The notes beneath the pieces are model-generated. The model did not search any database, was not told the origin of the DNA, and worked only from the letters and a program-made list of their open reading frames with translations. From an uncultured Clostridium sp. (GTDB taxonomy: Bacteria > Bacillota_I > Bacilli_A > RF39 > UBA660), in assembly GCA_905199855.1 (NCBI GenBank), contig CAJKHY010000003.1, positions 6,823-70,822 of the forward strand: a stretch of 64,000 nt of DNA, written 5' to 3'. Shown here piece by piece: positions 1,749 to 29,930 of the stretch; the stretch's first letter is position 1, and every line of letters begins with the position of its first letter. Both the position numbers and the translations under genes were made by a program.

Positions 1749-1844
1749 CCATTATAATATTAAGATAAATTTTGCTTTTAGTCAAATAAAAAAGACATAT
1801 ACTTGACAGTATACATCTTTTACCCCTTTTTTTATTTCGTTTTA

Positions 1845-3302: not shown

Positions 3303-3368
3303 AATTTTCCCCCTCTTTCAAAAAGATGTCTCATATTCTAGCACGTATGTTTGTATTTGTCAAGTGTT
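3303..3368 (-). promoter_or_regulatory. Consensus sigma-A promoter plus leader of ORF-A: TTGACA-17-TGcTAGAAT with extended -10, and RBS AGAGGGGGAA
   Basis: Reverse complement reads CTTGACAAATACAAACATACGTGCTAGAATATGAGACATCTTTTTGAAAGAGGGGGAAAATTATG. About 80% identical to the promoter/leader of ORF-B at 18903-18970. Confidence 0.6.
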
Positions 3369-3382
3369 TTTTTGTTTTTTTT

Positions 3383-3916: not shown

Positions 3917-3963
3917 GTAAGAGAACCTCCTAATTAAATTTTATTTAGGAGGTTTTACTTTAT

Positions 3964-4497: not shown

Positions 4498-4533
4498 CCT
4501 TTCTAATAGTGTTATGGGGGATAATGATTTTTT

Positions 4534-5328: not shown

Positions 5329-6379
5329 TTCCTTCTAAGGCTCTTTTCTGATTTTCGTTTATTAAGGCATCAATTATGATTCCTAATTCACCATCCATGA
5401 TGCGATCTAGATTCATTGATGTAAATCCAATTCGATGGTCGGTTACTCTATTTTGAGGGTAATTATAGGTTCTTATTTTTTCTGAGCGATCGCCAGTTCC
5501 TATTTTAATTCTTCTTTCAGCACTTTCTTTTTCTTCGTTTTCTTTTAATTTCAAGTCATATAATCTTGTTTTTAAGATTTTCATGGCTTTTTCTTTGTTT
5601 TTGATTTGGCTTCTTTCTGTTTGGGAATAAACAATGATACCTGTTGGGATATGGGTTAATCTTACTGCTGAGTCAGTTGTGTTTACGCCTTGTCCTCCAC
5701 AGCCACTTGAACGGGTGATATCTACTCGTACTTCTGATTCATCTAATTCAAAATCAAATTCTTCAGCTTCTGGCATGACTAAAACGGTTGCTGTTGAAGT
5801 ATGAACACGGCCTTGAGATTCGGTTTCTGGTACTCTTTGAACACGATGCGAACCACTTTCAAACTTTAATTTAGAATATGCTCCTTCTCCTTTAATCATA
5901 AATTCTATTTGGGCATATCCTCCAGCCGAACCTTCAACACTGTTTAAGATTTCACTTTTCCAACCATAGTTGGCTATATATTTTTGGTACATGTCATATA
6001 AATCGCCTGCGAAAATGTTGGCTTCATCTCCTCCTGCGGCTCCACGAATTTCTATGATAACATTCTTTTCATCATTAGGATCGTGTGGTAGTAATAAGAT
6101 TTCTAATTCTTTTTCAGTTTTGTTTTTTTCTTCTTCTAATCTAATTAATTCTTCTTTAGCAAACTCTCCTAATTCTTTATCGTGGATTAGTTCTTTACTT
6201 TCTTTGATATCATTTAATATTTTTTTATATTTGAGATATAGTTCTACTGTTTCTTTTAATCTTACTTGTTCTTTTGATAATTCGGTCATTTTTTTAATAT
6301 CTTTTAATACTTCTTCGCTTGATAGTAGGGAAGTTGTTTCGTCATATCTTTCTTTGATTTTTTCTAATCTTTCAATCAT
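5318..6379 (-). CDS. prfA: peptide chain release factor 1
   Basis: GGQ motif (SGCGGQGVNTTDSAVRLTHIPTGI) and RF1-type PxT region (RVQRVPETESQGR). Confidence 0.9.
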   Translation of the reverse strand: MIERLEKIKERYDETTSLLSSEEVLKDIKKMTELSKEQVRLKETVELYLKYKKILNDIKESKELIHDKELGEFAKEELIRLEEEKNKTEKELEILLLPHDPNDEKNVIIEIRGAAGGDEANIFAGDLYDMYQKYIANYGWKSEILNSVEGSAGGYAQIEFMIKGEGAYSKLKFESGSHRVQRVPETESQGRVHTSTATVLVMPEAEEFDFELDESEVRVDITRSSGCGGQGVNTTDSAVRLTHIPTGIIVYSQTERSQIKNKEKAMKILKTRLYDLKLKENEEKESAERRIKIGTGDRSEKIRTYNYPQNRVTDHRIGFTSMNLDRIMDGELGIIIDALINENQKRALEGNDK

Positions 6380-11360: not shown

Positions 11361-13238
11361 TTATTTTTTTTGAATTTTTATTATAAATTGATATTCGTTA
11401 GGTAAATCTAATTCGTCTACATCAACAATGTAACCTGATGCTTCTAAGTTATCTATTAGTTGTCTACTCATATTTAAGGCATTCCTTAAATAGTATGGAG
11501 AATATTCTTGTTTTGCTTGTGGTTGTTCTTCAAACGAAGGTGCCCCCTCTGTATTAAATTCTGGCAAGAATGGTTCTTCAATTTTTGATGGTTGAATGTT
11601 TGGTTGTGTTTCAACTGGAGAGGATACAAAAGTTGGATTATTGTTTTGTAGCGAAGGTTGAGTTGATGCTGTGATGCTTTCTTGAGTTGCAACTGGTTGA
11701 ATATTATTTACTGTTTCTTCTTGGGGTACGAACTGAGGTGTTATATTGTTTGAAATATTCTCTGGAGTTTGTTCAATTTTTTGGTTAGGTTCTAAATTAA
11801 TGTTTGAAATTGTTGGTTCTATTTTTGGTGTTTGAACACTTGGAATGTCATTTGTAGTTGGAGTTTGAATTGTATTTAAGTTAGGTAATGGCATCGTATT
11901 TTCAATAGATGATGTAGGCATTGGGGTAATATTTGATGCCATGGTTTCTGGAGTTGGCATTTCCCAAGTATTTATTGGATTATTTAAGTTTAGTTCTTGG
12001 TAAGATTCTGTAGGAGTTGCAATATTAACTTCTGGATGTGGTGTTTCTTTAGCCCCTTGTATATTTATTTGTTCAGGTTGATTTTGAAAATTATTTGGTA
12101 CTGCAGGTTGTGGTGTTGGTTCTACTAGAGTTGAATTTAATTCCGGCATATTAAATATAGGGGTAGGATTTATAGTTTGTGATGTTACTTCAGGGGTTTG
12201 TTCATTATTTACAGTATCAGGCATGTTTATTCTTTCTATATTAATTGGTTGTGGAGTTTGTGGTTGCATAGGTAAAGGCATTTCGACATTTTTTGCAGGT
12301 TCCATAAAGTTAGAGCCTGTGTTCATGTTTGTGCTTTCATCTTCTAGTGATGTGAAAAATTTGCCTGCGAATGAAAATTTTGGTTTTTCAACAGGTTGTT
12401 CTTGTTTTGGCATACTTTCATCTACTTTTAATAAATTGTTGATATCTGCAGTTTGCTCTTGATGATTTATATCTTGGGCTGATGCTTTAATTGCATCAAT
12501 GTTAATCATTTGTGTTTTATCCATTTTATCCTCCACTATTTCTGGTTCAACATCATCGAACGTATTTGATTTTTTATTTACTATATCAAGTCCTGATAGA
12601 ACTTTTTGCATATTAGGATTAATATCCATTTCCTCTACTTGTTCTTTGTTTTCTTTAATTATATCTTGGACTTGTTTAACTGTTAATCTTTCTTTTTTGA
12701 TTCTTTCTAGCATTGCATTTTCTTCCTGTTCATTTTCTAATTGAAGTAATGCTTTAGCATGTCCTTCGCTAATTTCATTATTTTGTAAAGCTTCTTGGAC
12801 ATTTTTACTTAATTTTAATAGTTTCATTTTGTTATTTATTTCTTTTTCTTCTTTAGACATTAAATTGGCTATTTCTTTAGTGTTACTATTTCCCGCTAGA
12901 TTTTGATAAGCTTTGGCTTCTTCAATTGGAGTAAGACTTTGTCTTTGAAGATTTTCAACGATGGCTAGTTCGGCACTTGCTTGGTCATTTATTTCCATAA
13001 TAATAGCTGGTACTTGGGTTAAACCTACTAAAGAGGCGGCTTTTAATCTTCGTTCACCTGCGATTACTTCATAACCATTAGGTATTTTTCTTAGAATAAG
13101 GGGTTCTATTATCCCATATTTTTTTATAGAGTTTGCCAATTCTTGTAGTGCTTTCTCATCAAATTTAATACGTGGTTGAAAACGGTTAGGTTTTATTTCA
13201 GTAATGTTTATTTGTTTTATTTCATTACTTTGTTGCAT
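11361..13238 (-). CDS. parB: ParB/Spo0J-family partition protein with a long low-complexity insertion
   Basis: ParB N-terminal domain with the IAGERRLKA motif and HTH. Then ~350 aa rich in P/T/N/Q, then a short C-terminal domain. Start set at MQQSNEIK with AAGGAGGG RBS; the ORF track extends to 13313. Confidence 0.75.
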   Translation of the reverse strand: MQQSNEIKQINITEIKPNRFQPRIKFDEKALQELANSIKKYGIIEPLILRKIPNGYEVIAGERRLKAASLVGLTQVPAIIMEINDQASAELAIVENLQRQSLTPIEEAKAYQNLAGNSNTKEIANLMSKEEKEINNKMKLLKLSKNVQEALQNNEISEGHAKALLQLENEQEENAMLERIKKERLTVKQVQDIIKENKEQVEEMDINPNMQKVLSGLDIVNKKSNTFDDVEPEIVEDKMDKTQMINIDAIKASAQDINHQEQTADINNLLKVDESMPKQEQPVEKPKFSFAGKFFTSLEDESTNMNTGSNFMEPAKNVEMPLPMQPQTPQPINIERINMPDTVNNEQTPEVTSQTINPTPIFNMPELNSTLVEPTPQPAVPNNFQNQPEQINIQGAKETPHPEVNIATPTESYQELNLNNPINTWEMPTPETMASNITPMPTSSIENTMPLPNLNTIQTPTTNDIPSVQTPKIEPTISNINLEPNQKIEQTPENISNNITPQFVPQEETVNNIQPVATQESITASTQPSLQNNNPTFVSSPVETQPNIQPSKIEEPFLPEFNTEGAPSFEEQPQAKQEYSPYYLRNALNMSRQLIDNLEASGYIVDVDELDLPNEYQFIIKIQKK

Positions 13239-13371
13239 AAAAAATCCCTCCTTATTCTTTTTTCTTACCCTTATGATATAATAATACACTAAGAAAAGGA
13301 AAAATTCAATCATTTTTTGTCGAAATAATATAAAAAAAATTAGAATTTTATGTTAATCTAACTTTTTTTAT

Positions 13372-15958: not shown

Positions 15959-16852
15959 CTATGTTTCTATTATTCTTTTTACTCTTTCTATTGATACTTT
16001 GTAATTACGATATTCGATGTTGGTTGTACCTATTGTTTCAAAATTAGTTATTATTTTACTATAATAAGTGTAAATTAAGACAATAGCACTTATATCTATT
16101 AGATTTTGCTTGGTTAAGGTTATAGCATAGAAGATAATACCATATCTACTTAAATCAATGATAAATAATACTAGATAAATAATACCTTGCGACATGACGT
16201 TAAATTTGTAATTACTTTCTAGGTATTTTGTCGTGGTAATATTATTTATTTCACTGATGGCGTTTATTTCTTTGTTACGTATTTGTTCTTGCATTTCTAA
16301 ATCTTGGATTATTTTTTCGTCTAAAAGTTTTTTTTTGTTTTTGTTATATTCTTGTAGTTCTTTACCAGCATATATTTGAAATACTAACATTAAAACAATT
16401 ATGATAAAGGCAAAAATAAATATTTTATAATTTACTAAATAAAATGAAATTAAAATAACAATAAATTCTACTAATTGTAGAAGTCTTGTTACAAGATTAC
16501 CTAGGAATGTACATATGATGTCGGTATCATTATAAGCGATGTTGGCAAACTTTCCCGAATTTATTTCAGTTATTTTTTTATTTTTAAATTTTTTACTTAT
16601 TGTTAAAAATAACCGGCTATAGTAGTTATACCATGTTTTTTGGTTTATGTAGCACCAAAAGTAGTATAATGAAGAGATTATAAAGCAGATTATTATTAGG
16701 TAATACGCTTTTTCATAATTAACATTTGTAATGTATTTGACGACTTTACCCCAGTAAATAGGGATGAGTAGAGAAGTTACACACATCATGATGGAAGTTA
16801 ATATTTTAAGTATTAGTGGTTTTTTATTTTGTTTAATTATTTGTTTTATCAT
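15959..16852 (-). CDS. ABC exporter transmembrane domain (ABC_membrane-like), no nucleotide-binding domain; possible gene remnant
   Basis: 297 aa with 5-6 TM helices and a type-I exporter TMD pattern (…SGKFANIAYNDTDIICTFLGNLV…AGKELQEYNKNKKKLLDEKIIQDLEMQEQ…). The ORF stops where an NBD would begin. Confidence 0.5.
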   Translation of the reverse strand: MIKQIIKQNKKPLILKILTSIMMCVTSLLIPIYWGKVVKYITNVNYEKAYYLIIICFIISSLYYFWCYINQKTWYNYYSRLFLTISKKFKNKKITEINSGKFANIAYNDTDIICTFLGNLVTRLLQLVEFIVILISFYLVNYKIFIFAFIIIVLMLVFQIYAGKELQEYNKNKKKLLDEKIIQDLEMQEQIRNKEINAISEINNITTTKYLESNYKFNVMSQGIIYLVLFIIDLSRYGIIFYAITLTKQNLIDISAIVLIYTYYSKIITNFETIGTTNIEYRNYKVSIERVKRIIET

Positions 16853-16944
16853 TTTACCTCCTTATATTATTAGTTTGGCATTTTTTGTTATTTTTATATA
16901 TATTAATTTAAATTAATGTTATAATAATTTATGAAGGTGAAGAT

Positions 16945-17820
16945 ATGAGGTTTGAAAAAGAAATAAGAATTGCAAAAGAAATTATGGAAAATTTTATTAA
17001 TAAATTAGGTCTTGATGGAAAGAATTTTTGCAGAATTATGAAATTTCCTGTGGTTATATATAATAATGTTATTTTTGATGGTGATGGAAGGTATGTGTCA
17101 ATAAATAATAAATATTTAAATAAGATAATTAATTCGTTTTCTTTTAGTGAAGAGGAAAAGACGAACATTTTAGAAAATGGACTTATTGAGATAGATAAAA
17201 AATATGAAAATAATCATAATTCTATGTTTTATGTAACTTTAGTTCATGAAATTTTACATGCTAATAGGGATTTGCTTTTATATGATTATTTTAACAATGT
17301 TGGGGGTAGTGAATTTTCTAATGAATATGCTTATGTTTATAAAGATGGGAGATTTTTTAAGAATACTAGTAATTTGTCTTTTGATTATGGAGATGCTAGT
17401 CAAAATATATTGAATGGTAATATTGATAGTTCTAAGATAGAGAATGCTCAGGATGAATTAGATATGGATGAAAAGGTAGCGGAAAAAATGGACAAACAAG
17501 TTGAGATTGATGAGGCTTTGATTGATACTATGTCTATTGTAGCAAATAAGATTTATAATGAGAAAAAAAAGGGGAATAAGTTGGGTATTTTTGAGTGTTT
17601 AGAATTACTTAGAGACTGTATAGATGTTAATAATGTTAAGGTTATTTGTGATATTATTTTAAGACATAGAGATTATGGTTTATTTTATTGGGTGTTAGAT
17701 CCTATTGGCTATACATATGGTGATATTCATTATGATTTTTTTAGTAACTATACTAAAAATGATGGTGATTTAGTTAGTTGTTTTGATTCTTATCAGGATT
17801 TTGGCAAAAGAAAAAACTAG
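16945..17820 (+). CDS. hypothetical protein with an HExxH zinc-metallopeptidase-like motif
   Basis: 291 aa; HEILHANRD motif around residue 100; no TM; extended -10 promoter TGTTATAAT upstream. Confidence 0.4.
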   Translation: MRFEKEIRIAKEIMENFINKLGLDGKNFCRIMKFPVVIYNNVIFDGDGRYVSINNKYLNKIINSFSFSEEEKTNILENGLIEIDKKYENNHNSMFYVTLVHEILHANRDLLLYDYFNNVGGSEFSNEYAYVYKDGRFFKNTSNLSFDYGDASQNILNGNIDSSKIENAQDELDMDEKVAEKMDKQVEIDEALIDTMSIVANKIYNEKKKGNKLGIFECLELLRDCIDVNNVKVICDIILRHRDYGLFYWVLDPIGYTYGDIHYDFFSNYTKNDGDLVSCFDSYQDFGKRKN

Positions 17821-17825
17821 TTTTG

Positions 17826-18902
17826 CTAGTTTTTTCTTTTTTTTAATCTTTTGTTCATGTTATGAAGGGCTACACCGTTCATGATTAAATTACCATGTTT
17901 GTATTCTTGATATTGAAGTCGGTTTGCCTCTTCGATGTCTTCTCCACCAAAGTATAGTATTTTAATACTTTCTTTTAGTTTTTTTAGTTTTTCTAGTCTT
18001 TCTGTTGGTGTACTTCTTACTTCGTCTTTTTTATAGTTATCACATTTTGATACTATAAATTTTTTCATTTCTCCATTTTCTTTTATTTCTTGGATTCCTT
18101 CAGTTATAAAGTCGTAAGAATCTATTCTTGATTTAATACGGTCTTTTATTTTAGGACAAAGTGTTGCTGTAGCATTTTGACAACTAAAGCATAGATGGTT
18201 TTGACTTTTAGTGTAAATTATGTCTATTAAATCTGCAAATATGTTTTGTGATAATTCATAAATTCCATTATTAATGTTATTCGTTTTGGTGTATGAAGCA
18301 AATATTTCATTTATTGGTGTATTTATTTTTTTATTTTCTAATTCTCTTATTGTTCTTTCTGGTAATCTTAATAATAAGTTAGTATAATATGTCATTATCA
18401 TTTCTTTTATCATGATAGATATTGTGGCTTTTTTATTATTTATTAAACTTTTTTCTATATATTTGACATTATTGTTAACTTTGTTTTTTGTTATCTTTTT
18501 TGTAGATGTGTAAAGACTTAATGGAATAAGGTGGTTCTGTTTTAAGATGTCATTTACTATTGTAGATGTGTAAAAACTTAATGGAATAAGGTAGTACTGT
18601 TTTAAGATGTCATTTACTATTTGTAATAGTTCTTCTTCTGTTTTTGCTTCATTTATTTTTTTTATGATGTTACTTGTTTCATTTAATGAACAATGGGCGT
18701 TTAATTCGTTTGTTATTGATTTTGCTTTTCTTATGATTTCACTTTTTTCCTTGCTAGGTAATTTTATGATGTCTTCTTGGCTTAAGATGTTTTCAAAACA
18801 TTTATCTTTTTTAGTAAAATATGGTATGAAATTACTTCTTTTTATTTTTTCTACCTCAGCAATTTGTCCGTTTTCTTTTTTAATTATAATACTTTTTCCC
18901 AT
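17826..18902 (-). CDS. hypothetical protein (ORF-B) with an internal 20-aa tandem duplication and a Cys-rich C-terminal half
   Basis: 358 aa from MGKSIIIKKENGQIAEV. The start is chosen because a perfect sigma-A promoter and GGGGG RBS lie immediately upstream; the track's longer ORF reaches 19037. Contains HLCFSCQNATATLCP…SKCDNY. Confidence 0.5.
   Translation of the reverse strand: MGKSIIIKKENGQIAEVEKIKRSNFIPYFTKKDKCFENILSQEDIIKLPSKEKSEIIRKAKSITNELNAHCSLNETSNIIKKINEAKTEEELLQIVNDILKQYYLIPLSFYTSTIVNDILKQNHLIPLSLYTSTKKITKNKVNNNVKYIEKSLINNKKATISIMIKEMIMTYYTNLLLRLPERTIRELENKKINTPINEIFASYTKTNNINNGIYELSQNIFADLIDIIYTKSQNHLCFSCQNATATLCPKIKDRIKSRIDSYDFITEGIQEIKENGEMKKFIVSKCDNYKKDEVRSTPTERLEKLKKLKESIKILYFGGEDIEEANRLQYQEYKHGNLIMNGVALHNMNKRLKKRKN
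18501..18620. repeat. 2 x 60-bp direct tandem repeat (~95% identity) inside ORF-B, in frame
   Basis: tgtagatgtgtaaagacttaatggaataaggtggttctgttttaagatgtcatttactat repeated; encodes IVNDILKQYYLIPLSFYTST / IVNDILKQNHLIPLSLYTST. Confidence 0.9.
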
Positions 18903-18970
18903 ATAAAATTCCCCCTTTTTTTGAAATATGACTCGTATTATAGCACGTTTGTTTTTGTTTGTCAAGTTTT
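18903..18970 (-). promoter_or_regulatory. Consensus sigma-A promoter plus leader of ORF-B: TTGACA-17-TGcTATAAT, RBS AAGGGGGAA
   Basis: Reverse complement reads CTTGACAAACAAAAACAAACGTGCTATAATACGAGTCATATTTCAAAAAAAGGGGGAATTTTATATG. About 80% identity over 56 nt to the ORF-A promoter/leader. Confidence 0.65.
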
Positions 18971-19021
18971 TTATTCGAGTGGGAGGAGTACTAAAAACAA
19001 TAACAAAAGAAAAAAGAAGAA

Positions 19022-20371
19022 TTATTTTCCTAGACAAAATCTTTTAAACATTTCGTCTAGCATTTCTTCTTTATATGTAGCACCGATTATTTCGCCTAGT
19101 ATGTTCCATGCTTCTTTGATATCTATTTCTAATAGATATGGTTCTATTCCTTGACGTGTTTTATTAATTACTTCTTTTAGAATGTCATGGGCTTTTTTTA
19201 GTAATCCGATGCTTCTTGCACTTGTTAGATAATTCATATCTGTTGTTTCTATTTTATCAATGTTAAATAAGTATTTTATTTTGTTTTTTAAATCATCTAT
19301 TCCTATATTATATTCTGCACTTATTTTAACTATGTTTTCATGGTTAATTTCTTCAATATTGGTAGGTAAGTCTATTTTATTTAAAACAATTATACTTGTT
19401 TTGTTTTTAATTAATTCTAATAAATATTTATCTTCTTCTGTTAATTGTTCATTACTGTTTAAGATAAGTATTATTAGGTTACTATTTTCTATAACTTCTT
19501 TGCTTTTGTTTACTCCAATTTGTTCTACAATATCATTTGTCTCTCTTATTCCTGCAGTATCAATTAGGTGGATAGGAATGTTATCTATTTGGATTGTTCC
19601 TTCGACAATATCTCTTGTTGTTCCTGCAATATTGGTTACTATTGCTTTGTTTTCTTCTAAGAGTGTATTTAGTAAACTGCTTTTTCCAACATTTGGCCTA
19701 CCTATTAGACATACTTTTATTCCTTCGGTTATTATTTTCCCATTTTCGCTTTGAGTTATTGTATCTTCTAGGCTTTTGTTTACTTCTTTTAGAATTGGTA
19801 ATATTTTTTCATTGTTAATAACTTCGATATCATCGTATTCTGGGTAATCAATGTTTACTTCAATATTAGAGATTACTTGAATTAGTTTATCTCTTAGAGA
19901 TATTATCTTATTTGAAACATTACCACTTAATTGGTTGATTGATAGTTTTCTGGATGTTTCTGTTTTGGCTTCGATTAGATTCATGATACCATCGGCCTCG
20001 ATTAGGTCAATTCTTCCATTTAAAAAGGCTCTTTTGGTGAATTCTCCTGGTTCTGCTAGACGAATACCTTTTTGAATAAGTAATTCTAATACTTTATTAG
20101 TTGTGGATATACCTCCATGGCAATTTATTTCGACAATGTCTTCTTTGGTATAGGTTTTAGGACTTTTCATGATGCTTATTAGGACTTCATCTATTATTTC
20201 TTCTTTGTTTACGATATGTCCATAGTGAATGGTATGGGTGTTTACTTTGGTTAAATCTTTTCCTTTAAATATTTCATTTACTAATGGTATTGCATCTTTG
20301 CCACTTACTCTTATGATGGATATAGCTCCAACTCCTAAGGCCGTTGATATACCTGCAATTGTATCATTCAT
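19022..20371 (-). CDS. mnmE: tRNA modification GTPase MnmE/TrmE
   Basis: 449 aa; G-domain GRPNVGKSSLLN, DTAGIRE; C-terminal CLGK motif. Confidence 0.9.
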   Translation of the reverse strand: MNDTIAGISTALGVGAISIIRVSGKDAIPLVNEIFKGKDLTKVNTHTIHYGHIVNKEEIIDEVLISIMKSPKTYTKEDIVEINCHGGISTTNKVLELLIQKGIRLAEPGEFTKRAFLNGRIDLIEADGIMNLIEAKTETSRKLSINQLSGNVSNKIISLRDKLIQVISNIEVNIDYPEYDDIEVINNEKILPILKEVNKSLEDTITQSENGKIITEGIKVCLIGRPNVGKSSLLNTLLEENKAIVTNIAGTTRDIVEGTIQIDNIPIHLIDTAGIRETNDIVEQIGVNKSKEVIENSNLIILILNSNEQLTEEDKYLLELIKNKTSIIVLNKIDLPTNIEEINHENIVKISAEYNIGIDDLKNKIKYLFNIDKIETTDMNYLTSARSIGLLKKAHDILKEVINKTRQGIEPYLLEIDIKEAWNILGEIIGATYKEEMLDEMFKRFCLGK

Positions 20372-20435: not shown

Positions 20436-20855
20436 TTAGATTTCATAATATTTTCTTTTTTTTACTTTTGGTAACTCTTTTGATGGAGTGTAGTTATAGA
20501 TTAATGAGGCTGTCATAGTAACAAAACTTTCTTTATTATTTGAACAGATCTTCTTCTCAAGATTTATTCCTTTTTCCTGGCATAGGTCTTGGAAGTATTC
20601 TTCGTTGATGTTTTCAAATATTGGATTAGAATAATTATATTTTTTGCTATTTTTTTCACAATATGTATATTTGGTTTCAAATTTTGTTATTTTTTGTTCT
20701 TCTTCTAAATTTTCTATTATTTTATTTATTAAATCTTCTTTGATGTAGTTAAAAGCTTCTTCGGTTTCATTTTTTTTTGTTATTTTTATTATGTGATTTT
20801 CACATAGTTGGTCTAAATATTTTTTAAATTCTTTGTTTATTTCTATTTTACTCAT
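20436..20855 (-). CDS. hypothetical protein, lineage-specific
   Basis: 139 aa, K/E-rich, 4 Cys; directly downstream (10-bp gap) of the 437-aa ORF. Confidence 0.4.
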   Translation of the reverse strand: MSKIEINKEFKKYLDQLCENHIIKITKKNETEEAFNYIKEDLINKIIENLEEEQKITKFETKYTYCEKNSKKYNYSNPIFENINEEYFQDLCQEKGINLEKKICSNNKESFVTMTASLIYNYTPSKELPKVKKRKYYEI

Positions 20856-20865
20856 TTTTTTACTC

Positions 20866-22179
20866 CTATTTTGTTTTATTTTTTAGTTTACTAGATATGA
20901 GTTGTTGAACTTGTTCATCTATTTTTCTTTGTTCTTCTTCATTTATGTTATTTAATATGGTATCTTTATTATATTGTTTGATTCTTTGTTTTATTGATTC
21001 ATTGTCTTGTTTGGTTGAAAATGAAGATTTTTTTTCTAATATCATTATGATACCATAGGTGTTATTTTCTAGGTACTCACAGATTATTCTTGCTTGTGAA
21101 GAGTTAGAATTAGATCTTATTCTTTTTATTTTACGATATGGGATGTCTTTTTGATATGTACTCTTTAATGGGATATTATTTTCTTTTATTTTGATTAGAA
21201 GAGAATAGATATCTTTTAATGTTTTTTGTTCTTCTATATTATCTATATCTTTTAAGATGTTATTAGATAGATAAACTATTTTATTTTTATGATTTTGGTA
21301 ATCAAAGTAGGTATCTGTTGGTTCTTCTTCAATACTTTCTTCTTTTTCTTTTAGATGTTTAAATAGTTCATATAGGATATCAATATTTTCTTTTACTATT
21401 TGTTTATCTTCTTCGTCTAATTCATTTAATAGAGATGTTTCTTCTTCGATTTCTTCTTTTAAGATGCTACTTAATATAACAATAGTATTTGTTGTATTGG
21501 AATTGTTTTCATATATGTTATTGTTTATTAAAACATCAAGTTTTTGAATTTTTTCTTCAATTGTTGGTAATTTATCAATTTCGGTAATAAAGACTTGTTT
21601 TGCTATGTCAAATGTTAGGGAGAAGCCTTCTTCGATTAGGTCTTTTTTACTCGGTGTATCTTTTAAAATTTCTTCTCTGTTAATTTGTTTAATAGTATTT
21701 TCTTCTATATATTTAGATATTTGCTCATATTCTTCTTTGGTTAGGGGAATATTTTTAATAATGTTATTTAATTTGTTTGGTTCTAGATTATAGAGTTTGG
21801 TTTTCTGTAAAATGTTTTTTATGTTTTCTAGGATGTCTATGTCTTTGATAATTAGAGTTTCTTTAGTTTGGAGGGAAAGTTTTTTTAAATATTCTAAAAG
21901 GACATTTACTTCAATAAGATAGTCTTCTATTCCGTTTGTTCCAATTTGTTTATATGCTATATAGATTTCTTGAGCATTTTTAATGGATTTGTTGTTTTGA
22001 AAATCCGGTATGAGTTTTGTAAATATAGAATTTAATAAGTTTGTATTGTTTTTATCTAATATGCTAAGTGGTTCATGTGTATATATTTCTAAGAACTTTT
22101 CGATATTTTCTTTTAGTTCTTGTTTTTGAGTTTCTTTTATAATTGTTTCTTCTATTTTGTTAATAAGAAAATTTTCCAT
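20866..22179 (-). CDS. hypothetical protein, lineage-specific
   Basis: 437 aa, acidic/K-rich, no recognisable motif; own promoter TTGTCA-17-TATAAT and RBS upstream. Confidence 0.45.
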   Translation of the reverse strand: MENFLINKIEETIIKETQKQELKENIEKFLEIYTHEPLSILDKNNTNLLNSIFTKLIPDFQNNKSIKNAQEIYIAYKQIGTNGIEDYLIEVNVLLEYLKKLSLQTKETLIIKDIDILENIKNILQKTKLYNLEPNKLNNIIKNIPLTKEEYEQISKYIEENTIKQINREEILKDTPSKKDLIEEGFSLTFDIAKQVFITEIDKLPTIEEKIQKLDVLINNNIYENNSNTTNTIVILSSILKEEIEEETSLLNELDEEDKQIVKENIDILYELFKHLKEKEESIEEEPTDTYFDYQNHKNKIVYLSNNILKDIDNIEEQKTLKDIYSLLIKIKENNIPLKSTYQKDIPYRKIKRIRSNSNSSQARIICEYLENNTYGIIMILEKKSSFSTKQDNESIKQRIKQYNKDTILNNINEEEQRKIDEQVQQLISSKLKNKTK

Positions 22180-22871: not shown

Positions 22872-23786
22872 TTATACCTTCTTTCTTTTAACTATTTCAT
22901 TTTGCACTATTGTGAATAAACTTGATGTTATCCAATAAATTGCTATTGCTGTTGGTAGGGTAATGGATGCCATTGCTATAAAGAATAACATAAAATAAAT
23001 AGTAAATTTCATTTGATTTGCTGCTTGAGTTGCTTGATCTTTTAATGTATTTTTAAATGAGAAATAGGTAGTACCAATGATAAGGATAATTAAAATTATG
23101 TAGTAATAATTGCCATTTGCAATACCGACTGAAGGGTTAGTCCCCATTTGAAGAGATAAGAATTTTTTTTCAAATATTGCTGGAACACGGTTGATAGCTT
23201 CAAGGAAAGCAAAGAATAATGGTAATTGGATAAAAGCAAGTAAACAACCTGATGCTGGTGAAATATTATATTTTTTATATATTATCATTAGTTCTTGAGC
23301 TTTTTGCATTTGACTTTCACGATCTAGTTTATCAGCATATTTTTTTTCTAGTTTGTCTAGTTCAGGTTTTGCTTTTTTCATATTTTCGGATTGTACTGCG
23401 GTTTTATTTGTAAGAGGATAGGCAATTAAACGAATAATTATGGTTGCTATAATGATTGCAAGACCATTATTTTTTACTATTTTACCTATTTGGATTATTG
23501 CCCAGGCTAGTGGTTTTACAAATATTGAAGTCCAAAGTCCTTCATAGCCTCCATCTGTTGGTTTGAAATTATCACATGTAGGTAGTTTGGTTATATCTTT
23601 GTTATTTTCTTTATATAGTTTGATTGCATTTTCATTAGTTGGTTGACAAAGAATATTTTCTGTTAATGATTGTCCTGTTTCTTTATTGACTATTGTTTTT
23701 TTATCATCACCTTTTAGGTATTTTGTACATCCCGTTAATAGGAACAGTGATAATACTATAATTATTATTTTTTTATTTTTTGACAT
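22872..23786 (-). CDS. yidC: membrane protein insertase YidC/SpoIIIJ/Oxa1 family
   Basis: Lipoprotein-like N-terminus (LLTGC) and 5 TM helices with the YidC core pattern. Confidence 0.85.
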   Translation of the reverse strand: MSKNKKIIIIVLSLFLLTGCTKYLKGDDKKTIVNKETGQSLTENILCQPTNENAIKLYKENNKDITKLPTCDNFKPTDGGYEGLWTSIFVKPLAWAIIQIGKIVKNNGLAIIIATIIIRLIAYPLTNKTAVQSENMKKAKPELDKLEKKYADKLDRESQMQKAQELMIIYKKYNISPASGCLLAFIQLPLFFAFLEAINRVPAIFEKKFLSLQMGTNPSVGIANGNYYYIILIILIIGTTYFSFKNTLKDQATQAANQMKFTIYFMLFFIAMASITLPTAIAIYWITSSLFTIVQNEIVKRKKV

Positions 23787-24117
23787 GTTTTTCTCCTTCT
23801 ACTTTATTGAATAGGTTAATTAATTCAGTTTGCATTTTAGAATAATCAATATTTTTTACCCACTCTCTTACTATTATAACATAATCATATGATTTTGGTA
23901 TAGATATTTTGTTATTATCAATAATACTTTTTATTTGTCTTTTGATTTTGTTGCGGGTAACGGCATTTCCTGTTTTTTTAGGAATTGAGATGCCATAGTA
24001 ATTTTTCTCTTGATTAGGTTGATAGAAAATACTAAAATATTTATTTTTAATAGCATTTTTTTTGTTTATTATTTTGGAAAATTCATAATTTTTTTTAATA
24101 ATTTCTTTTTTTTTCAT
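23773..24117 (-). CDS. rnpA: ribonuclease P protein component
   Basis: Basic ~115 aa protein with an RnpA-type RNR motif region (VTRNKIKRQIK). Start chosen at the ATG with GGAGG RBS; the track ORF extends to a GTG at 24144. Confidence 0.8.
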   Translation of the reverse strand: MKKKEIIKKNYEFSKIINKKNAIKNKYFSIFYQPNQEKNYYGISIPKKTGNAVTRNKIKRQIKSIIDNNKISIPKSYDYVIIVREWVKNIDYSKMQTELINLFNKVEGEKHVKK

Positions 24118-24160
24118 ATGTTCCTCCAATAAGAAAAAAGCCACTTAAAAGATTAGTGGT

Positions 24161-24283
24161 TTAAGCACATAATTTTTTACGGCCTTTTGCTCTTCTTTTG
24201 TTTAATACTTTTCCTTCAATACGGGCAAAGAAACCATGTTTTTTCTTTTTATTTCTATTATTTGGTTGAAAAGTTCTTTTCAT
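24161..24283 (-). CDS. rpmH: 50S ribosomal protein L34
   Basis: Reverse translation gives [40 protein letters not shown]. Confidence 0.95.
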
Positions 24284-24599
24284 TATTACACCTCCAAAGT
24301 TCTTTTTTTAATATAAAATGCTATTTTATTATATAGGTGTTTTATTTTAAAGTCAATAAAAATTTTTATTTTGTCTATTTTTTTGTTATGATACAAGTTA
24401 TTTATAGTTGATATTGACATTAGCAAATAATGTCTTTTTTTATTAGAATGTTGTATCCTAAATAAGGTATGTTTCTATTTTTTAACTAAATTTTTCTTGT
24501 GATAACGGCGTAGCAAAGGCATAAGAAAATTAAAATTGGTGTTTTAAAAATTATAGTTTTGGTGTATAATGGTTTTAAGAATAGAATTTGGGTGATTAT

Positions 24600-26366
24600 A
24601 TGTTTAAGAGGATACTTGCTATTAGTAAGAATTATGCTTTTGTAGAGATAGATAATTTAATGAGTGAAGATTTGCTTAATTATTATGTTATTTTTGTCGA
24701 TGATGATAAGAAGTTTCTTGGCGAGGTTAATGAGGTAGATGGTAATAGGGTTAAGATTACTTTTTTAGGCGAATTTATTAATGATAAGTTTGTTAGTGGT
24801 ATTATTAGAAAACCTAGTTTGACTTCTAATATTAGAATTATTAACAATATTGAGCTCGATGAGTTAATGGGGACTGTTAATGATAAGAATATGGTTCTTG
24901 GTTTATCTCCTTTATATAATGATCATCCAATTAATATAGATATTAATAGTATGTTTAGTAACCATAGTTCAATATTTGGTAACACAGGAAGTGGTAAAAC
25001 ATATGGGGTTGCTAGAATTTATCAGTCTTTGTTTGATAGAAATGATATTATTCCTTTTAATGCTAATATTTTTATATTTAATTCAACTAATGAGTATCAT
25101 AATTCTTTTTCTTCTATTAATAAGTTTAATATTAATTATAATTATAAGATGTATACGACTAATACTAATAATAAGGATAGTTTAATTATTAAGTTGCCTC
25201 TTTGGCATTTAACTGTTGATGATTATGCTAATTTACTTGATGTTTACGAATATTCACAGATTAATATTATAGAGAAGATGTTATCCTATGTATGTGCTTT
25301 TGCTAAGAATGATGAGTATTCAATAAGATATAAGAATCATTTGATAGCTTCTGCAATTATATCAGTTATGTATACGAATCAAACGGCTTTTAGGATAAGG
25401 GATCAAATATTTAATATTCTTAGTACTTGCAGTACAAAAGATTTAAATTTGGATTATGAAATTCCTGGTGTTGGATATACTAGAACTTTTAGAAAATGTT
25501 TTGATATTGATAGTCAAGGAGAATTTGTTGAGCGATTACTTGTTTCTAAATATGTGGAACAGTTTGTTGATAATAATACGAAATGGAATGAAGATTATAC
25601 TCCCATTTATTATACTTTAGAGGATTTAGAGATAGCTTTAAACTTTACTTTGATTAGTGAAGGATTACTTTTAAATGAAAAATATTATGCGGAGGCGATT
25701 GCTTTAAAAGTAAAGTTGCATTCTATTATTAATAGTTCTTATCATAAATTTTTTGATTATAATAGATTTGTTAGTTTGACTGAGTTTATTACTGATATCG
25801 TGGTTAATAAAGAAAATAAAAGATGTCAAATAATTAATTTTGTCTTAGAAGATGTGGATGATAGATTTGCTAAGGCTTTAACTAAGATTTATTCAAGATT
25901 ATTTTTTAAGTTTGCTAGAAGTTTGCCTCAGCGTGGGACATTTCCTATGCATATTTTATTGGAAGAAGCCCACAGATATGTGCAAAACGATGCAGATACT
26001 AGGACTTTAGGTTATAATATTTTTGAGAGAATTGCTAAGGAAGGTAGAAAATATGGGGTAATTTTAGATTTGGTTACTCAAAGGCCTACGGAATTATCCG
26101 AATCAGTTATTTCTCAGTGTAGTAACTTTTTGATTTTTAAGATTAATCACCCAACTGATTTAGATTATATTGGTAAAATGGTTCCTAATATTACGGATGA
26201 TATAATTGAAAAGCAAAAAAGTTTGCAGTCTGGGATATGCGTAGCGTTTGGCAAGATGATGAAGTTACCTATGATAGTTAAGATGAAACTTCCTAATCCT
26301 CCTCCTAGCTCCGCGAATGCTGATGTATATGATAAATGGATGTTTAATTTAAAAGGTAGATATTAA
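24600..26366 (+). CDS. HerA/DUF87-family ATPase (HAS-barrel + RecA-like hexameric ATPase), standalone
   Basis: Walker A GNTGSGKTYG; Walker B/catalytic ILLEEAHRY; HerA-type C-terminal block GRKYGVILDLVTQRPTELSESVISQCSNFLIFKINHPTDLDYI; ~125-aa N-terminal barrel-like region. Confidence 0.7.
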   Translation: MFKRILAISKNYAFVEIDNLMSEDLLNYYVIFVDDDKKFLGEVNEVDGNRVKITFLGEFINDKFVSGIIRKPSLTSNIRIINNIELDELMGTVNDKNMVLGLSPLYNDHPINIDINSMFSNHSSIFGNTGSGKTYGVARIYQSLFDRNDIIPFNANIFIFNSTNEYHNSFSSINKFNINYNYKMYTTNTNNKDSLIIKLPLWHLTVDDYANLLDVYEYSQINIIEKMLSYVCAFAKNDEYSIRYKNHLIASAIISVMYTNQTAFRIRDQIFNILSTCSTKDLNLDYEIPGVGYTRTFRKCFDIDSQGEFVERLLVSKYVEQFVDNNTKWNEDYTPIYYTLEDLEIALNFTLISEGLLLNEKYYAEAIALKVKLHSIINSSYHKFFDYNRFVSLTEFITDIVVNKENKRCQIINFVLEDVDDRFAKALTKIYSRLFFKFARSLPQRGTFPMHILLEEAHRYVQNDADTRTLGYNIFERIAKEGRKYGVILDLVTQRPTELSESVISQCSNFLIFKINHPTDLDYIGKMVPNITDDIIEKQKSLQSGICVAFGKMMKLPMIVKMKLPNPPPSSANADVYDKWMFNLKGRY

Positions 26367-26389
26367 TCTATCTTTTTTTTATAAATTGA

Positions 26390-26735
26390 ATGAAAAAAGA
26401 GTTATCCACAGTAAAATGTGGAATAAATTTTCTATTTGTTGTCTAATTGTGTAAAAATTTGACACATTTTTGGTACTAAATACAAGAAAAAAGAAAAGTT
26501 ATCCACATAACGAATAAGTTATCCACATGTGAGGATGGGTGTTGATAATAATATACACATAAAATTTTTTTTGTGTAAATTTGTGGAAAAAAGAAGAAAT
26601 CCTTATAAAATATATAAAATATAAGTGGAATTTTGTGTGGAAAAACTGAGGATAGTTAGTATTTTTTAAAAAAATTCTTTTCATTTTCCACATTATAGTG
26701 TAAAATATAGATAGAAATCCAAAAAATAAGGAGTA
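26390..26735. promoter_or_regulatory. oriC upstream DnaA-box cluster and dnaA promoter region
   Basis: Perfect TTATCCACA boxes at 26404, 26507 and 26525. Near-consensus boxes TGTGGAAtA, TGTGGAAAA (x2) and TTTTCCACA. TTGACA promoter at 26459. Confidence 0.85.
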
Positions 26736-26741
26736 ATGGTT

Positions 26742-28094
26742 ATGGATACATTAGTAATTTGGAATAGTTTTTTAGAAAAAATTAAAGAACAGGTTTCTTC
26801 TTTATCTTACGAAACTTGGTTTAAGGATACGAAATTAGTTAGTTTAGATAATAATACCGCGACTGTTATTGTCCCTATGAACTTACATAAGAAGCATTTA
26901 AAAGAAAATTATATTTCTTTAATGGAAGATATTTTTAATAGTATTACGGGTACTAATTTTACTTTTTCTTTCTTACTTGAAGAAGAATACGAGACAGAAA
27001 CTGTAGTAGAAGATGTGGATGTTGGAGTACCTAAGTATCATAGGGAAGATGCTAATTTAAAACCAAATTACACTTTTGAATCATTTATTATTGGTGAAAG
27101 CAATAAGTTTGCTTATACTGCTGCGATGTCGGTAGCAGAAAAACCTGGAAAAGCTTATAATCCTTTATTTTTGTATGGTAAAAGTGGTTTAGGTAAAACA
27201 CACTTAATGCATGCAATAGGTAATTATATTATAAATAATACTAATTTAAAGGTTTTATATGTTACTAGTGATGATTTTGTTAACGATTTTATTAGAGTAG
27301 TACGCAACAAGGATAAGGAAAATTTTGAATTAATTAATACTTTTAAGGCAAAATATAGAAATGTGGATGTTTTAATGATTGATGATATTCAGTTTTTAGA
27401 AAATGCGGCTGCTACACAGCAAGAATTTTTTCACACATTTAATGAGTTATATAATTCTAATAGGCAAATCATCATTTCTTCCGATAGATCGGTTAATGAT
27501 TTAAAGTTACTTGAGGATAGACTTAGGACACGTTTTGCTTGTGGACTTACTGCAAATATTTTTCCACCCGATCTGAAATTAAGCAAGGATATTATAAAGA
27601 AAAAGATAATGTATCAAGAATCAGCCAAAGACATACCAGAAGATGTAATTGATTATATTGCTAATAGTTTTAGTACTGATGTTAGGTCATTAGAAGGGGC
27701 TATTACTAGGGTATTTGCTTATTCTTTAATGATGGGGCATGGGGAAATTACTTTAGACATTGCAGTTGATGCTTTAAAAGATCAAATGATTAAATCTTGT
27801 AATTTTAAGAATGATATACATCGTATTCAAATGGTGGTAAGTGATTATTTCCACATAAAAGTGGAAGATTTAAAGGGAAAGAAAAGGTCTAAGTCGATTG
27901 CTTTTCCTAGACAGATAGCAATTTACCTGTGTAGAACTTTAACTAATGAGTCTTTCCCTAGAATAGGTGGTTATTTTGGTGGAAGAGACCATTCAACAAT
28001 AATGCATTCTTATGATAAAATAAGTGTGGATATGAAAAATAATGAACAAGTTAAAGAAATAATAAAAGATATTAAAAAAACTTTATCTAATTAA
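26742..28094 (+). CDS. dnaA: chromosomal replication initiator DnaA
   Basis: AAA+ Walker A LFLYGKSGLGKTHL, box VII, C-terminal DNA-binding domain; start at the second ATG (8-nt spacing to AAGGAG). Confidence 0.95.
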   Translation: MDTLVIWNSFLEKIKEQVSSLSYETWFKDTKLVSLDNNTATVIVPMNLHKKHLKENYISLMEDIFNSITGTNFTFSFLLEEEYETETVVEDVDVGVPKYHREDANLKPNYTFESFIIGESNKFAYTAAMSVAEKPGKAYNPLFLYGKSGLGKTHLMHAIGNYIINNTNLKVLYVTSDDFVNDFIRVVRNKDKENFELINTFKAKYRNVDVLMIDDIQFLENAAATQQEFFHTFNELYNSNRQIIISSDRSVNDLKLLEDRLRTRFACGLTANIFPPDLKLSKDIIKKKIMYQESAKDIPEDVIDYIANSFSTDVRSLEGAITRVFAYSLMMGHGEITLDIAVDALKDQMIKSCNFKNDIHRIQMVVSDYFHIKVEDLKGKKRSKSIAFPRQIAIYLCRTLTNESFPRIGGYFGGRDHSTIMHSYDKISVDMKNNEQVKEIIKDIKKTLSN

Positions 28095-28226
28095 CTTGTG
28101 TAAAGTTATTTGACATTATGCACAAGAAAAAATGTTAAAAACACTTATAAAATAAGAGATAGTAAAGTTATCCACAGTTATCCACAATATAATCATTAAT
28201 AAAAAAATAAAGAAAGAAGGTATATT
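28095..28226. promoter_or_regulatory. oriC downstream part: two tandem DnaA boxes plus an AT-rich putative unwinding region between dnaA and dnaN
   Basis: TTATCCACAgTTATCCACA at 28168-28186, preceded by ~70 bp of >80% AT. Confidence 0.8.
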
Positions 28227-29339
28227 ATGAAATTTATTATCAAGAAAGAATATTTAATTGAGGGGTTAAATAATGTTTCAAAGGCTATTTCTTCAAAAAA
28301 TTTAATTCCTATATTAGCTGGGATAAAATTTGAGTTAAAAAAAGATGGACTTTATTTAAGTGCTAGTGATACTGATATTTCTATACAGTCATTTATTAGT
28401 AATGAAAAAATTAGTGAAGTAATTGAGTTAGGTAGTATTGTTATATATGGAAAGTATATTGTGGAGATAATTAGAAAGTTACCTAATGTGGATATATCTA
28501 TTGAAGTTTTAGATGGTTTTAAAATGTTGATTACTACAGATAATTCTTCATTTAATTTAAATGGGATAAATCCTAATGAATTTCCTAATTTATATTTAGA
28601 AGAAACTAAGGAACCAATTGTTTTGAAGAATAGTGAGCTAAAGGCTTTAATTAATAAGGTAGCATTTGCTACTTCACCTAGTGAGAGTAGACCAATTTTA
28701 ACTGGGATTAATTTTATTATAAATGGTGATAATTTGGAAGTTCTTGCTACTGATTCATATCGTTTGGCTAAATATAGCATAAATATTGATAAATTTAATA
28801 GTAATTCAGTTAATTTAGTAATACCATGTAGAAATTTATTAGAATTGATTAAAATTATTGATGATAATGGAGAAATTGAGATGCATTTATTTAACAATAA
28901 GGTGTTATTTAAATATAAAAATATTTTATTTCAGTCAAGGTTATTAAGTGGAACTTATCCTACTAATTCTAGTGTTATTCCTTCAAATTTTGAAATCCAA
29001 ATAGATGTTGATGTTAATGTGCTATATGAGATGATAGATCGTGCAAGTTTGTTAACTAGTGATAAGGATAAAAATACAATTAAGTTAATGCTTAATAAAA
29101 ATGAATTAGTAATTTTATCAAATAGTCCTGAAATAGGAAAGGTTGAAGAAAAACTTAGTTTAGTAACAGATAAGGAAATTGACATATCATTTAGTTCTAA
29201 ATATATGATGGAGGCTTTAAGAAGTTTTGAAGCTGAAACTGTTACTATTTGTATGAATAATGATATTTCTCCAATTGTTATCAAATCAACAGATGATAAT
29301 AATTTAGTTCAATTATTATTACCAATTAAGACATATTAG
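28227..29339 (+). CDS. dnaN: DNA polymerase III beta sliding clamp
   Basis: 370 aa, three-domain DnaN pattern, conserved position. Confidence 0.9.
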   Translation: MKFIIKKEYLIEGLNNVSKAISSKNLIPILAGIKFELKKDGLYLSASDTDISIQSFISNEKISEVIELGSIVIYGKYIVEIIRKLPNVDISIEVLDGFKMLITTDNSSFNLNGINPNEFPNLYLEETKEPIVLKNSELKALINKVAFATSPSESRPILTGINFIINGDNLEVLATDSYRLAKYSINIDKFNSNSVNLVIPCRNLLELIKIIDDNGEIEMHLFNNKVLFKYKNILFQSRLLSGTYPTNSSVIPSNFEIQIDVDVNVLYEMIDRASLLTSDKDKNTIKLMLNKNELVILSNSPEIGKVEEKLSLVTDKEIDISFSSKYMMEALRSFEAETVTICMNNDISPIVIKSTDDNNLVQLLLPIKTY

Positions 29340-29393: not shown

Positions 29394-29462
29394 AAATTCG
29401 ACAATATGTGTGTGTTAAAGTACAAGCCATATATATTTATATATATGTTTGGAGGTGATATA

Positions 29463-29930
29463 ATGGATTATTTTATTACGCAAGAGACATTACTTATTAT
29501 GCCAATTACGAAAACACAGACTAAGATATTAGAAAATGATAATGTCATGTTTGTTGATTCTAAAACATTCAAAATTGTAAATGATAATTGTAAGTTATAT
29601 GGAAGTACTTATTTGAATAGAGTAGAGTTTAGTAAAACAATACTTAAGTGTAGATGCAAAATGCCTATAATTTTAGATAATGATGGAAATATAATACTTT
29701 TTCCAACAACTTCTAAGCGTCAAGAACATTGTGCATGGTTAAATTATAATAATATTAAGTCTTATAAAGAACAGGGTTCAAAAAACGTAGTTGTTACCTT
29801 TTTAAATGGTATTAAGATTGTTATTAATATGTCATATTATACATTTGAGCACCAAATAAATAAATGTCATAGATTAAAATTGGATTATTTGGAAAAAAAA
29901 GTTTCAATTGTATACAAAAATGCCAGATAA
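29463..29930 (+). CDS. comK: ComK-family competence transcription factor-like protein
   Basis: Blocks IILFPTTSKRQEHCAWL and VVVTFLNGIKIVINMSYYTFEHQI align with B. subtilis ComK IFLFPTLSSTRPQCGWI and TEVTFSNGKTMELPISYNSFENQV; GGAGGTG RBS. Confidence 0.65.
   Translation: MDYFITQETLLIMPITKTQTKILENDNVMFVDSKTFKIVNDNCKLYGSTYLNRVEFSKTILKCRCKMPIILDNDGNIILFPTTSKRQEHCAWLNYNNIKSYKEQGSKNVVVTFLNGIKIVINMSYYTFEHQINKCHRLKLDYLEKKVSIVYKNAR

Follow-up and report, generated by a model that had tools for sequence, protein, structure and literature searches.

A partner-less HerA-family ATPase gene beside dnaA, conserved like a housekeeping gene in uncultured gut Bacilli

The window analysed here is the whole 64-kb stretch of contig CAJKHY010000003.1, from an uncultured Clostridium sp., and the element in question is a herA-family gene. 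It lies between rpmH and the left DnaA-box cluster of oriC, co-oriented with dnaA, exactly as the initial annotation of this DNA had described. Its interest lies in the clade to which it belongs: HerAs without a linked partner, housekeeping-like in behaviour, accompanied by paralogues and derived from the stock that also gave the Sir2-HerA motors. The window represents the replication-origin region of a low-GC genome (~27% G+C), and human-gut metagenome contigs match it at 99.8% identity over 12.3 kb. The AT skew changes sign at ~26 kb, consistent with an origin at this position. On the minus strand, the gene order comprises ParB, gidB, gidA, three open reading frames (ORFs) without a known family, mnmE, two further ORFs without a known family, jag, yidC, rnpA and rpmH. 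The plus strand then carries herA, dnaA, dnaN, a ComK-family gene, recF, gyrB, gyrA, dnaX, recR, holB and mfd. The features of the origin locus are the following:

24161..24283, minus strand: rpmH (ribosomal protein L34, 40 amino acids (aa)), the divergent upstream neighbour of herA; identified as an ORF, with the homologue in relatives annotated as PF00468
24284..24599, plus strand: rpmH-herA spacer of 316 bp, without DnaA boxes in a box scan
24600..26366, plus strand: herA-family gene, 588 aa, coding sequence including the stop; identified from the ORF and profile matches
26402..26692, no strand assigned: left DnaA-box cluster of oriC within the 369-bp herA-dnaA spacer, with 3 perfect and 4 one-mismatch TTATCCACA boxes
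26736..28094, plus strand: dnaA; a 450-aa form starting at 26742 is the version in public assemblies
28116..28186, no strand assigned: second DnaA-box group, in the dnaA-dnaN interval

From its ATG start, herA encodes 588 aa; the length of 589 aa reported initially is correct as a count of codons with the stop, and one too many for the protein. Starting from an in-frame TTG at 24588, the protein would measure 592 aa. The gene had also been credited with its own promoters. In favour of this, the rpmH-herA spacer contains a promoter-like TTTAAA-16-TATAAT arrangement (24543-24570) and a GGGTGA ribosome-binding site (24590-24595), and two relatives (L177 and L007) conserve them, with the -10 box, the ribosome-binding site and the ATG of herA all kept. 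On the other hand, promoter-like matches in this AT-rich stretch are no commoner than in shuffled sequence (25 vs 19.3 +/- 4.6). In the closest other species (L177/L178, 9003-10000; HerA 95% identical), the spacer measures ~1 kb, vs 316 bp in the window, and encloses a 113-aa minus-strand ORF; its conservation is limited to the last ~90 bp, which hold the -10 box, the ribosome-binding site and the start codon. Downstream of the gene, the perfect DnaA box nearest to the herA stop forms one arm of an inverted repeat, TCCACAgtaaaaTGTGGA (26405-26422), which a terminator scan flagged as well. The DnaA box pair at 26402-26422 may double as a weak herA terminator. An Rfam scan of 23500-28400, with E values up to 1 admitted, matched neither spacer to an RNA family.

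Profiles and structure both uphold the original placement of the protein in the HerA family, with a HAS barrel and a RecA-like ATPase. It matches Pfam PF01935 (DUF87/HerA) at 71.4 bits vs a cut-off of 23.2, and ten PADLOC HerA models at E below 1e-30, the best of which is PDLC04102 (7e-95, 317 bits, residues 43-582). The NCBIfam antiphage-HerA equivalogs score far under their cut-offs (NF042944, 138 bits vs 850; NF042943, 128 vs 800), as do the repair-HerA models (NF040937, 114 vs 800; NF040819, 82.7 vs 970). Judged by these profiles, the window protein is inside the HerA family yet outside every named NCBIfam HerA subfamily. In its AlphaFold monomer model (pLDDT 85.6, pTM 0.83), the chain begins with a beta-barrel, continues into a RecA-like core that a helical bundle of ~190 residues interrupts, and closes with a C-terminal brace. 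The best 50 Foldseek matches to this model are HerA chains throughout, with the HerA of the S. aureus Sir2-HerA complex at the top (8yhx_A, TM 0.74). In a phmmer search of the PDB, the top matches were the HerA subunits of DUF4297-HerA complexes (124 bits), with the similarity mostly in the C-terminal ATPase half. The motifs quoted in the initial annotation (GNTGSGKT, EEAH, GRKYGV, TQRP and QCSNF) are all present, and the parts of the protein map to the plus strand as follows:

24600..24899: N-terminal HAS-type beta-barrel, aa 1-100; beta strands at residues 2-80 in the model
24978..25001: Walker A motif GNTGSGKT, aa 127-134; G127, G130, G132 and K133 invariant in both alignments
25245..25814: helical-bundle insert inside the ATPase, aa 216-405; helices in the model
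25956..25973: Walker B and catalytic block LLEEAH, aa 453-458; E455, E456, A457 and H458 invariant
26040..26129: EGRKYGV...TQRP...QCSNF block, aa 481-510; G482, R483, K484, G486, P496, N509 and F510 invariant

Within the last block, EGRKYGV occupies aa 481-487, TQRP aa 493-496 and QCSNF aa 506-510; R483 is a candidate arginine finger, and the block would hold sensor residues too. The helical insert matches the N-terminal half of the ATPase core in conservation, with a mean top-residue frequency of 0.65 vs 0.68 over 88 orthologues. With all motifs intact and invariant across clades, the protein is predicted to be a catalytically competent HerA-type ATPase. It has no transmembrane segment, the highest 19-residue hydropathy being 1.23. 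Reassignment to FtsK, TraG or VirB4, an outcome that the initial annotation had allowed for, did not occur. The Pfam FtsK_SpoIIIE match over the P-loop is weak (20.5 vs a cut-off of 24), and an FtsK/SpoIIIE identity was rejected on this sub-threshold score and on the absence of the 4TM, alpha and gamma domains. A VirB4, TraG or TrwB identity was rejected as well: both a conjugation or type IV secretion system context and a best structural match to these proteins were looked for, and neither was found.

We then considered whether the gene has a linked partner. Among the scanned window ORFs of at least 120 aa, which cover the 64 kb and include all ORFs lacking a synteny identification, none matched NurA, SIR2 or DUF4297, and no plausible partner ORF lies beside herA on either side. 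The same holds for ~170 related loci, comprising those of the window protein's own orthologues (HerA-1) and of a paralogue described below: no partner gene stands next to herA in any of them, and NurA was not found there. The early observation that no partner ORF adjoins the gene is thus confirmed well beyond the window. Across 87 loci, the conserved herA neighbours are rpmH/rnpA, dnaA, ftsY, ylxM, ffh, ecfA/T, truA, leuS, rny and recA, and neither SIR2 nor DUF4297 is a conserved neighbour.

Seven window ORFs without a known family (143, 485, 297, 291, 403, 437 and 139 aa) were considered as hidden partners and rejected, as none reaches a Pfam threshold and none matches PADLOC. Two of them lie at 20436-22179 (minus strand) in the mnmE-jag junction, which is usually tight: the 437-aa ORF, with a sub-threshold Gp49/HigB-like C-terminus, and the 139-aa ORF. 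Both are kept in L007, L177 and L179-186, with ratios of nonsynonymous to synonymous substitution rates (dN/dS) of 0.16-0.23 and 0.05-0.23, respectively, and without PADLOC matches. The gidA-mnmE interval (15959-19037) holds three more, of 297 aa (membrane-like, minus strand), 291 aa (plus strand) and 403 aa (minus strand), with no match in Pfam or PADLOC. At 0.69 vs the 95%-identity relative, the dN/dS of the 291-aa ORF suggests relaxed or diversifying selection. Fused partners were also considered, in the C-terminal extensions of orthologues of 829-943 aa, and rejected, these being low-complexity S/N/T-rich tails without domains. Disordered S/N/T-rich tails of 70-360 aa occur in a number of HerA-1 orthologues (P0121, P0122, P0129, P0125, P0127; L063, L066, L067, L084), mostly at the C-terminus and once at the N-terminus. 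The tail of P0121 contains EHNPALDFG three times, and the tail ends of P0122 and P0129 are alike (LVNFIENMN and LSSFIDNM); these similar peptides may be short docking motifs.

The gene proved to be widespread in a single lineage. Among 5.8 billion proteins searched, the matches fell into at least 8000 clusters at 90% identity, of which the best 120 share no less than 68% identity with the window protein, and an exhaustive search of 50%-identity representatives yielded full-length relatives down to ~30% identity. Scanning one genome per species gave at least 594 stretches confirmed by tblastn. The best 80 of these, all at least 50% identical, come from uncultured metagenome-assembled genomes (MAGs) labelled Bacilli, Tenericutes, Mollicutes or Mycoplasmatota. 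Carriers include Clostridium sp. CAG:524 and Ca. Faecisoma merdavium (Mycoplasmatota incertae sedis at NCBI), a lineage which we take to be the GTDB order RF39 and its neighbours. Cluster look-ups of distant relatives returned unnamed metagenome proteins only. The MAG labels Muribaculaceae, Ignavibacteriales, Roseburia and Clostridium appear on contigs with Bacilli-type synteny; they look like binning or naming errors and were not used.

To describe gene context, loci were compared by tblastn of the window proteins and by clustering of ORFs with simple scripts of our own, and conserved neighbours were named by Pfam. In a neighbour-joining tree, the clades coincide with blocks of synteny:

Clade a, which includes the window: herA, DnaA-box spacer, dnaA, dnaN, comK-like gene, recF, gyrB; ~26 loci, with the herA-to-dnaA spacer visible in 18
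Clade b, sister to clade a: ecfA-ecfA'-ecfT-truA, herA, GH31, leuS; ~11 loci
Clade c, the largest: rnj (opposite strand), ftsY, small membrane protein, ylxM, herA, often ffh; ~40 loci
Nested in clade c: rny (opposite strand), herA, recA (convergent); 4 loci

Upstream of herA, ~11 loci of clade a have the divergent rpmH, and 7 have an LtaS-like sulfatase gene instead. All 18 visible herA-dnaA spacers contain DnaA boxes; upstream of herA, the only box is one with a single mismatch, in L012. Adjacency of herA and dnaA is limited to this one clade of the gene tree, and from tree and synteny the rpmH-herA-dnaA arrangement is a derived state of one sub-lineage, and no family-wide property. The initial annotation had spoken of an insertion between rpmH and oriC. 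With relatives at least 50% identical in at least 80 species, herA is instead a lineage-wide gene that stands at oriC in one branch, which makes the framing as an insertion at the origin misleading. A shared arrangement with a known housekeeping role had been raised as well; the arrangement is indeed fixed in the sub-lineage, but the protein has no known housekeeping role.

Some loci of clade a depart from the common order. In one species (L001-L003), rpmH (opposite strand) is followed by DUF1538, a P-II-like gene, herA and then a PBP gene (opposite strand). The PBP/argS/prfA block sits 15 kb to the left in the window, and the order in L001-L003 indicates an inversion with its breakpoint between herA and dnaA, which left herA on the rpmH side. 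In L014, the interval between rnpA/rpmH and herA has gained a small ORF and a 1542-aa FHA + FtsK/SpoIIIE gene (974-5602, minus strand; EssC-like, type VII secretion ATPase). The ComK-family gene of the window (29406-29930, plus strand; Pfam 1.6e-34), located between dnaN and recF, keeps its position in all relatives with herA beside dnaA. It diverges fast, at 25-36% identity where DnaN shows ~64%.

Sequence divergence places herA among the core genes that surround it. In shared loci, identity to the window proteins is 58-70% for HerA, 54-66% for DnaA, 62-66% for DnaN, 45-54% for RecF and 57-63% for YidC. The Nei-Gojobori dN/dS of herA is 0.085 and 0.093 in comparison with relatives at 95% and 88% identity, respectively. 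Housekeeping genes gave 0.098 and 0.087 (mnmE), 0.080 (dnaN), 0.061 and 0.077 (yidC) and 0.113 (recF), and nearby accessory ORFs without a known family 0.16-0.69. The constraint spans all HerA domains, the helical insert included, across the 88 orthologues. A look-up of the exact HerA protein returned no record. The exact window DnaA protein is recorded in 328 collection blocks. Of the contigs with this DnaA, 23 long ones were read, and every one has herA between rpmH and dnaA; the gene is intact and 99.3-99.8% identical in each of the eight of those loci for which DNA was returned. Viral contigs of IMG/VR contain four relatives only, at 27-28% identity. These comparisons show that herA is under purifying selection at the level of its replication and housekeeping neighbours and that it is fixed within the species. 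Its distribution and evolution are unlike those of a defence gene. The vertical inheritance, the dN/dS values, the 23 contigs and the four IMG/VR matches all speak against the earlier proposal of a single-gene variant of a HerA-based defence system.

The closest characterised relatives of the protein are nevertheless the HerA subunits of SIR2-HerA systems, at ~20-29% identity. PADLOC scores form a gradient, from 804 bits for P0149 through 500-586 for P0133, P0136 and P0139 to 245-370 for the orphan clades of Bacilli. In relatives of P0149 (P0369, P0305; Flavobacterium, Mucilaginibacter), herA overlaps an upstream SIR2_2 gene by 8 bp and is located in defence islands, amid restriction, Schlafen-like and recombinase genes. 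Since these relatives are SIR2-linked, PDLC04102 is a model of the SIR2-HerA type. Aligned with the SIR2-linked HerAs, the window clade lacks 8 N-terminal residues and four insertions: two in the barrel (~12 and ~21 aa), one that follows the barrel (~15 aa) and one further on (~15 aa). In S. aureus Sir2-HerA, Sir2 docks on the N-terminal barrel of HerA via protruding hairpins, and deletion of HerA residues 1-35 abolishes activity (PMC11514289). The alignment makes it plausible that the orphan HerA shed its Sir2-docking elements. As far as sequence can tell, the window HerA shares a branch with the HerA subunit of SIR2-HerA systems.

The lineage carries further orphan HerAs. A second clade, HerA-2 (P0124-like), is ~42% identical to HerA-1, and at least two genomes have both on one contig: in L072 they stand in tandem, and P0481 lies on a contig that matches the L059 contig in length (81,238 bp) and in its Ignavibacteriales MAG label and is probably identical with it. 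At L072 (6001-10537), a pair of type IV pilin-like genes separates the herA copies. The contexts of HerA-2, surveyed in 80 metagenome loci (L094-L173), comprise yqeG-yqeH-herA2 (27 loci), herA2-sepF-divIVA (8-9 loci) and ftsK-pnp-M16-M16-herA2 (3 loci), besides herA2-rlmN-PP2C-PASTA kinase and secDF-relA-...-herA2. Pilin-like genes with the N_methyl motif occur within a few genes of HerA-2 in ~10 of the 80 loci and are immediately adjacent in five. Near HerA-1 they were seen in one locus out of 87, and there owing to the paralogue. The pilin association holds for HerA-2 only and was rejected as a clue to the window HerA. We also rejected the idea that HerA replaces FtsK in HerA-2 loci, as four or five of these loci contain a complete FtsK (4TM, alpha, motor and gamma); in three, the complete FtsK lies three or four genes upstream of herA-2. 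Finally, a third type of paralogue (P0128/P0414) also stands alone, divergent from an LtaS-like gene.

Two further genes of the window deserve mention. A ParB homologue (11361-13313, minus strand, 650 aa) matches the ParB N-terminal and HTH domains over its first ~223 residues, which leaves a C-terminal extension of ~400 aa. A LexA-like repressor gene (HTH_3 + Peptidase_S24; 56090-56755, minus strand) adjoins two tandem Vut_1 transporter genes of the queuosine/vitamin uptake type.

Taken together, the gene is probably, though by no means certainly, a constitutive, vertically inherited core HerA-type DNA-handling motor that takes part in chromosome maintenance, and neither a mobile defence module nor an origin-specific factor. 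In this proposal, HerA would assemble into a hexameric ring, as in the structures of Sulfolobus HerA, Sir2-HerA and DUF4297-HerA and as for Thermus TdtA. Such a ring would use ATP to thread a polymer through its pore, by homology most likely double-stranded DNA. With no operon-encoded partner, it would act alone or with one encoded elsewhere, and its role in chromosome maintenance may be repair, recombination or segregation. Several points weigh against this proposal. The gene neighbourhoods lack a coherent functional theme, so that substrate and process are drawn from homology alone, and the closest characterised relatives are all defence components. The partner search extended over the 64-kb window and the related loci, which leaves room for an unlinked NurA-like, SIR2-like or other effector. 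The hosts among the matches are all uncultured. The gene tree is a distance-based one without support values, and presence in the lineage was sampled conditional on the gene being found.

The most concrete form of a housekeeping DNA role would be a HerA-NurA-like motor for double-strand-break end resection, with the nuclease encoded elsewhere. Knock-outs of Thermus HerA-like proteins are UV- and heat-sensitive (PMC5365140), one sub-clade has herA convergent with recA, and recF, recR and mfd lie nearby in the window. We nonetheless consider this sub-case unlikely: a NurA gene stands beside herA in 0 of the ~170 loci and is absent from the window, the repair-HerA profiles reach 114 and 82.7 bits where 800 and 970 are required, and the neighbours in sequence and Foldseek searches are defence-type HerAs with a long helical bundle, without the NurA-binding helix extension of the barrel (PMC11514289). 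An anti-phage component, either a HerA acting alone or one serving an unlinked effector, would agree with the best profile and fold matches, which are the HerA subunits of SIR2-HerA and DUF4297-HerA, and with the SIR2 linkage of the nearest outgroup of known context. It is less likely still, given that the gene was never seen in a defence island and has core genes as neighbours, that it is inherited vertically in synteny-coherent clades, and that in dN/dS and amino-acid conservation it is on a par with replication genes, with fixation within the species. The antiphage-HerA models of NCBIfam (138 vs 850 bits and 128 vs 800) and the missing barrel insertions of SIR2-linked HerAs point the same way.

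Two other explanations we hold to be equally and highly improbable. One is a task specific to the origin, for instance together with DnaA or in the movement or remodelling of the oriC region, in line with the origin-proximal function suggested at first. The adjacency to the left DnaA-box cluster is indeed kept in 18 related loci, including the seven with rpmH replaced, but the orthologues of the larger sister clades lie far from dnaA (ftsY-ylxM-herA-ffh, ecf-truA-herA-leuS, rny/recA), so that the adjacency is limited to one clade. Even inside this clade it is lost in L001-3 and L014, and DnaA boxes are absent upstream of herA. The other is DNA uptake, export or another envelope-linked translocation, as for Thermus TdtA and archaeal CedD. 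TdtA offers a precedent for an orphan HerA-like DNA pump (PMC5365140), a ComK-family gene is conserved three genes downstream, and pilin-like genes accompany HerA-2 in ~10 of 80 loci and lie between both herA copies in L072. The pilin association is, however, absent from the HerA-1 clade, the window protein is devoid of a transmembrane segment, and neither a ComG ATPase gene nor channel genes adjoin herA. The NCBIfam CedD match (3.4e-10) is weak, with 39 bits vs a cut-off of 600.

A broader scenario, which we offer as speculation with perhaps some chance of being right, concerns the origin of the family. A defence-type HerA might have been domesticated or, conversely, an ancestral housekeeping form might have supplied the motors recruited into SIR2-HerA. 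The protein would now be an indispensable chromosome-handling ATPase across an order-level lineage of uncultured gut Bacilli, in which two or three paralogues (HerA-1, HerA-2 and the P0128 type) perform a cell-cycle task (repair, segregation or origin-region handling) that other bacteria give to different machines.

Returning to the proposed chromosome-maintenance motor, the characterised HerA ATPases compared here all act with a dedicated effector, be it NurA, Sir2 or DUF4297, and a bacterial HerA is nowadays assigned to anti-phage defence almost as a matter of course. A large, abundant, uncultured gut lineage keeps a partner-less HerA in core operons, under constraint of the DnaA/DnaN level, together with orphan paralogues. 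This points to an unrecognised housekeeping use of the HerA motor, and it cautions against calling every bacterial HerA match defence, given that PADLOC-type models match the window protein at 7e-95. The clade offers a natural comparison for the interconversion of defence and cellular motors, in which the origin-adjacent position is a minor, clade-specific detail. Literature on HerA near rpmH/dnaA or ylxM/ffh, on DUF87 HerA in Firmicutes and on orphan HerA yielded no report of this clade.

Comparison with known systems sets out what is shared and what is distinct. FtsK/SpoIIIE belongs to the same superfamily of ring translocases, as the weak Pfam match over the P-loop reflects, whereas the window protein is devoid of the 4TM, alpha and gamma domains. 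The Thermus thermophilus FtsK-HerA translocases TdtA, TTC0147 and TTC1430 are similar by description, as they need no operon partner in the role assigned to them, with phenotypes in DNA pumping or repair (PMC5365140). TdtA is, however, membrane-bound and located on a mobile element, while the window protein is chromosomal, core and without a membrane segment. HerA-NurA (Sulfolobus 4d2i, Deinococcus 7f6d) has a non-defence role in chromosome maintenance, as proposed here. In contrast to it, the window herA has no NurA, Mre11 or Rad50 neighbours and scores far under the repair-HerA cut-offs, and the helical bundle of its protein is extended, as in bacterial defence-type HerAs (Foldseek TM to 4d2i only 0.54, normalised by query length). 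The HerA of DUF4297-HerA (PDB 9c1m, 8xau, 8ziq) provides the top phmmer matches in the PDB, but a DUF4297 nuclease gene was not found in the window or the related loci. Finally, the HerA of SIR2-HerA (Nezha; SaHerA, PDB 8yhx/8yho, PDLC04102) shares the N-terminal beta-barrel, the RecA-like ATPase and a long bundle of ~nine helices with the window protein; it is the top match by both Foldseek and profile, and a graded series of sequences joins both groups. The window herA differs in having no SIR2 gene (PF13289-type) nearby and a barrel without the SIR2-linked insertions. While defence HerAs are scattered patchily in islands, the window herA is a core, syntenic gene under housekeeping-level constraint.

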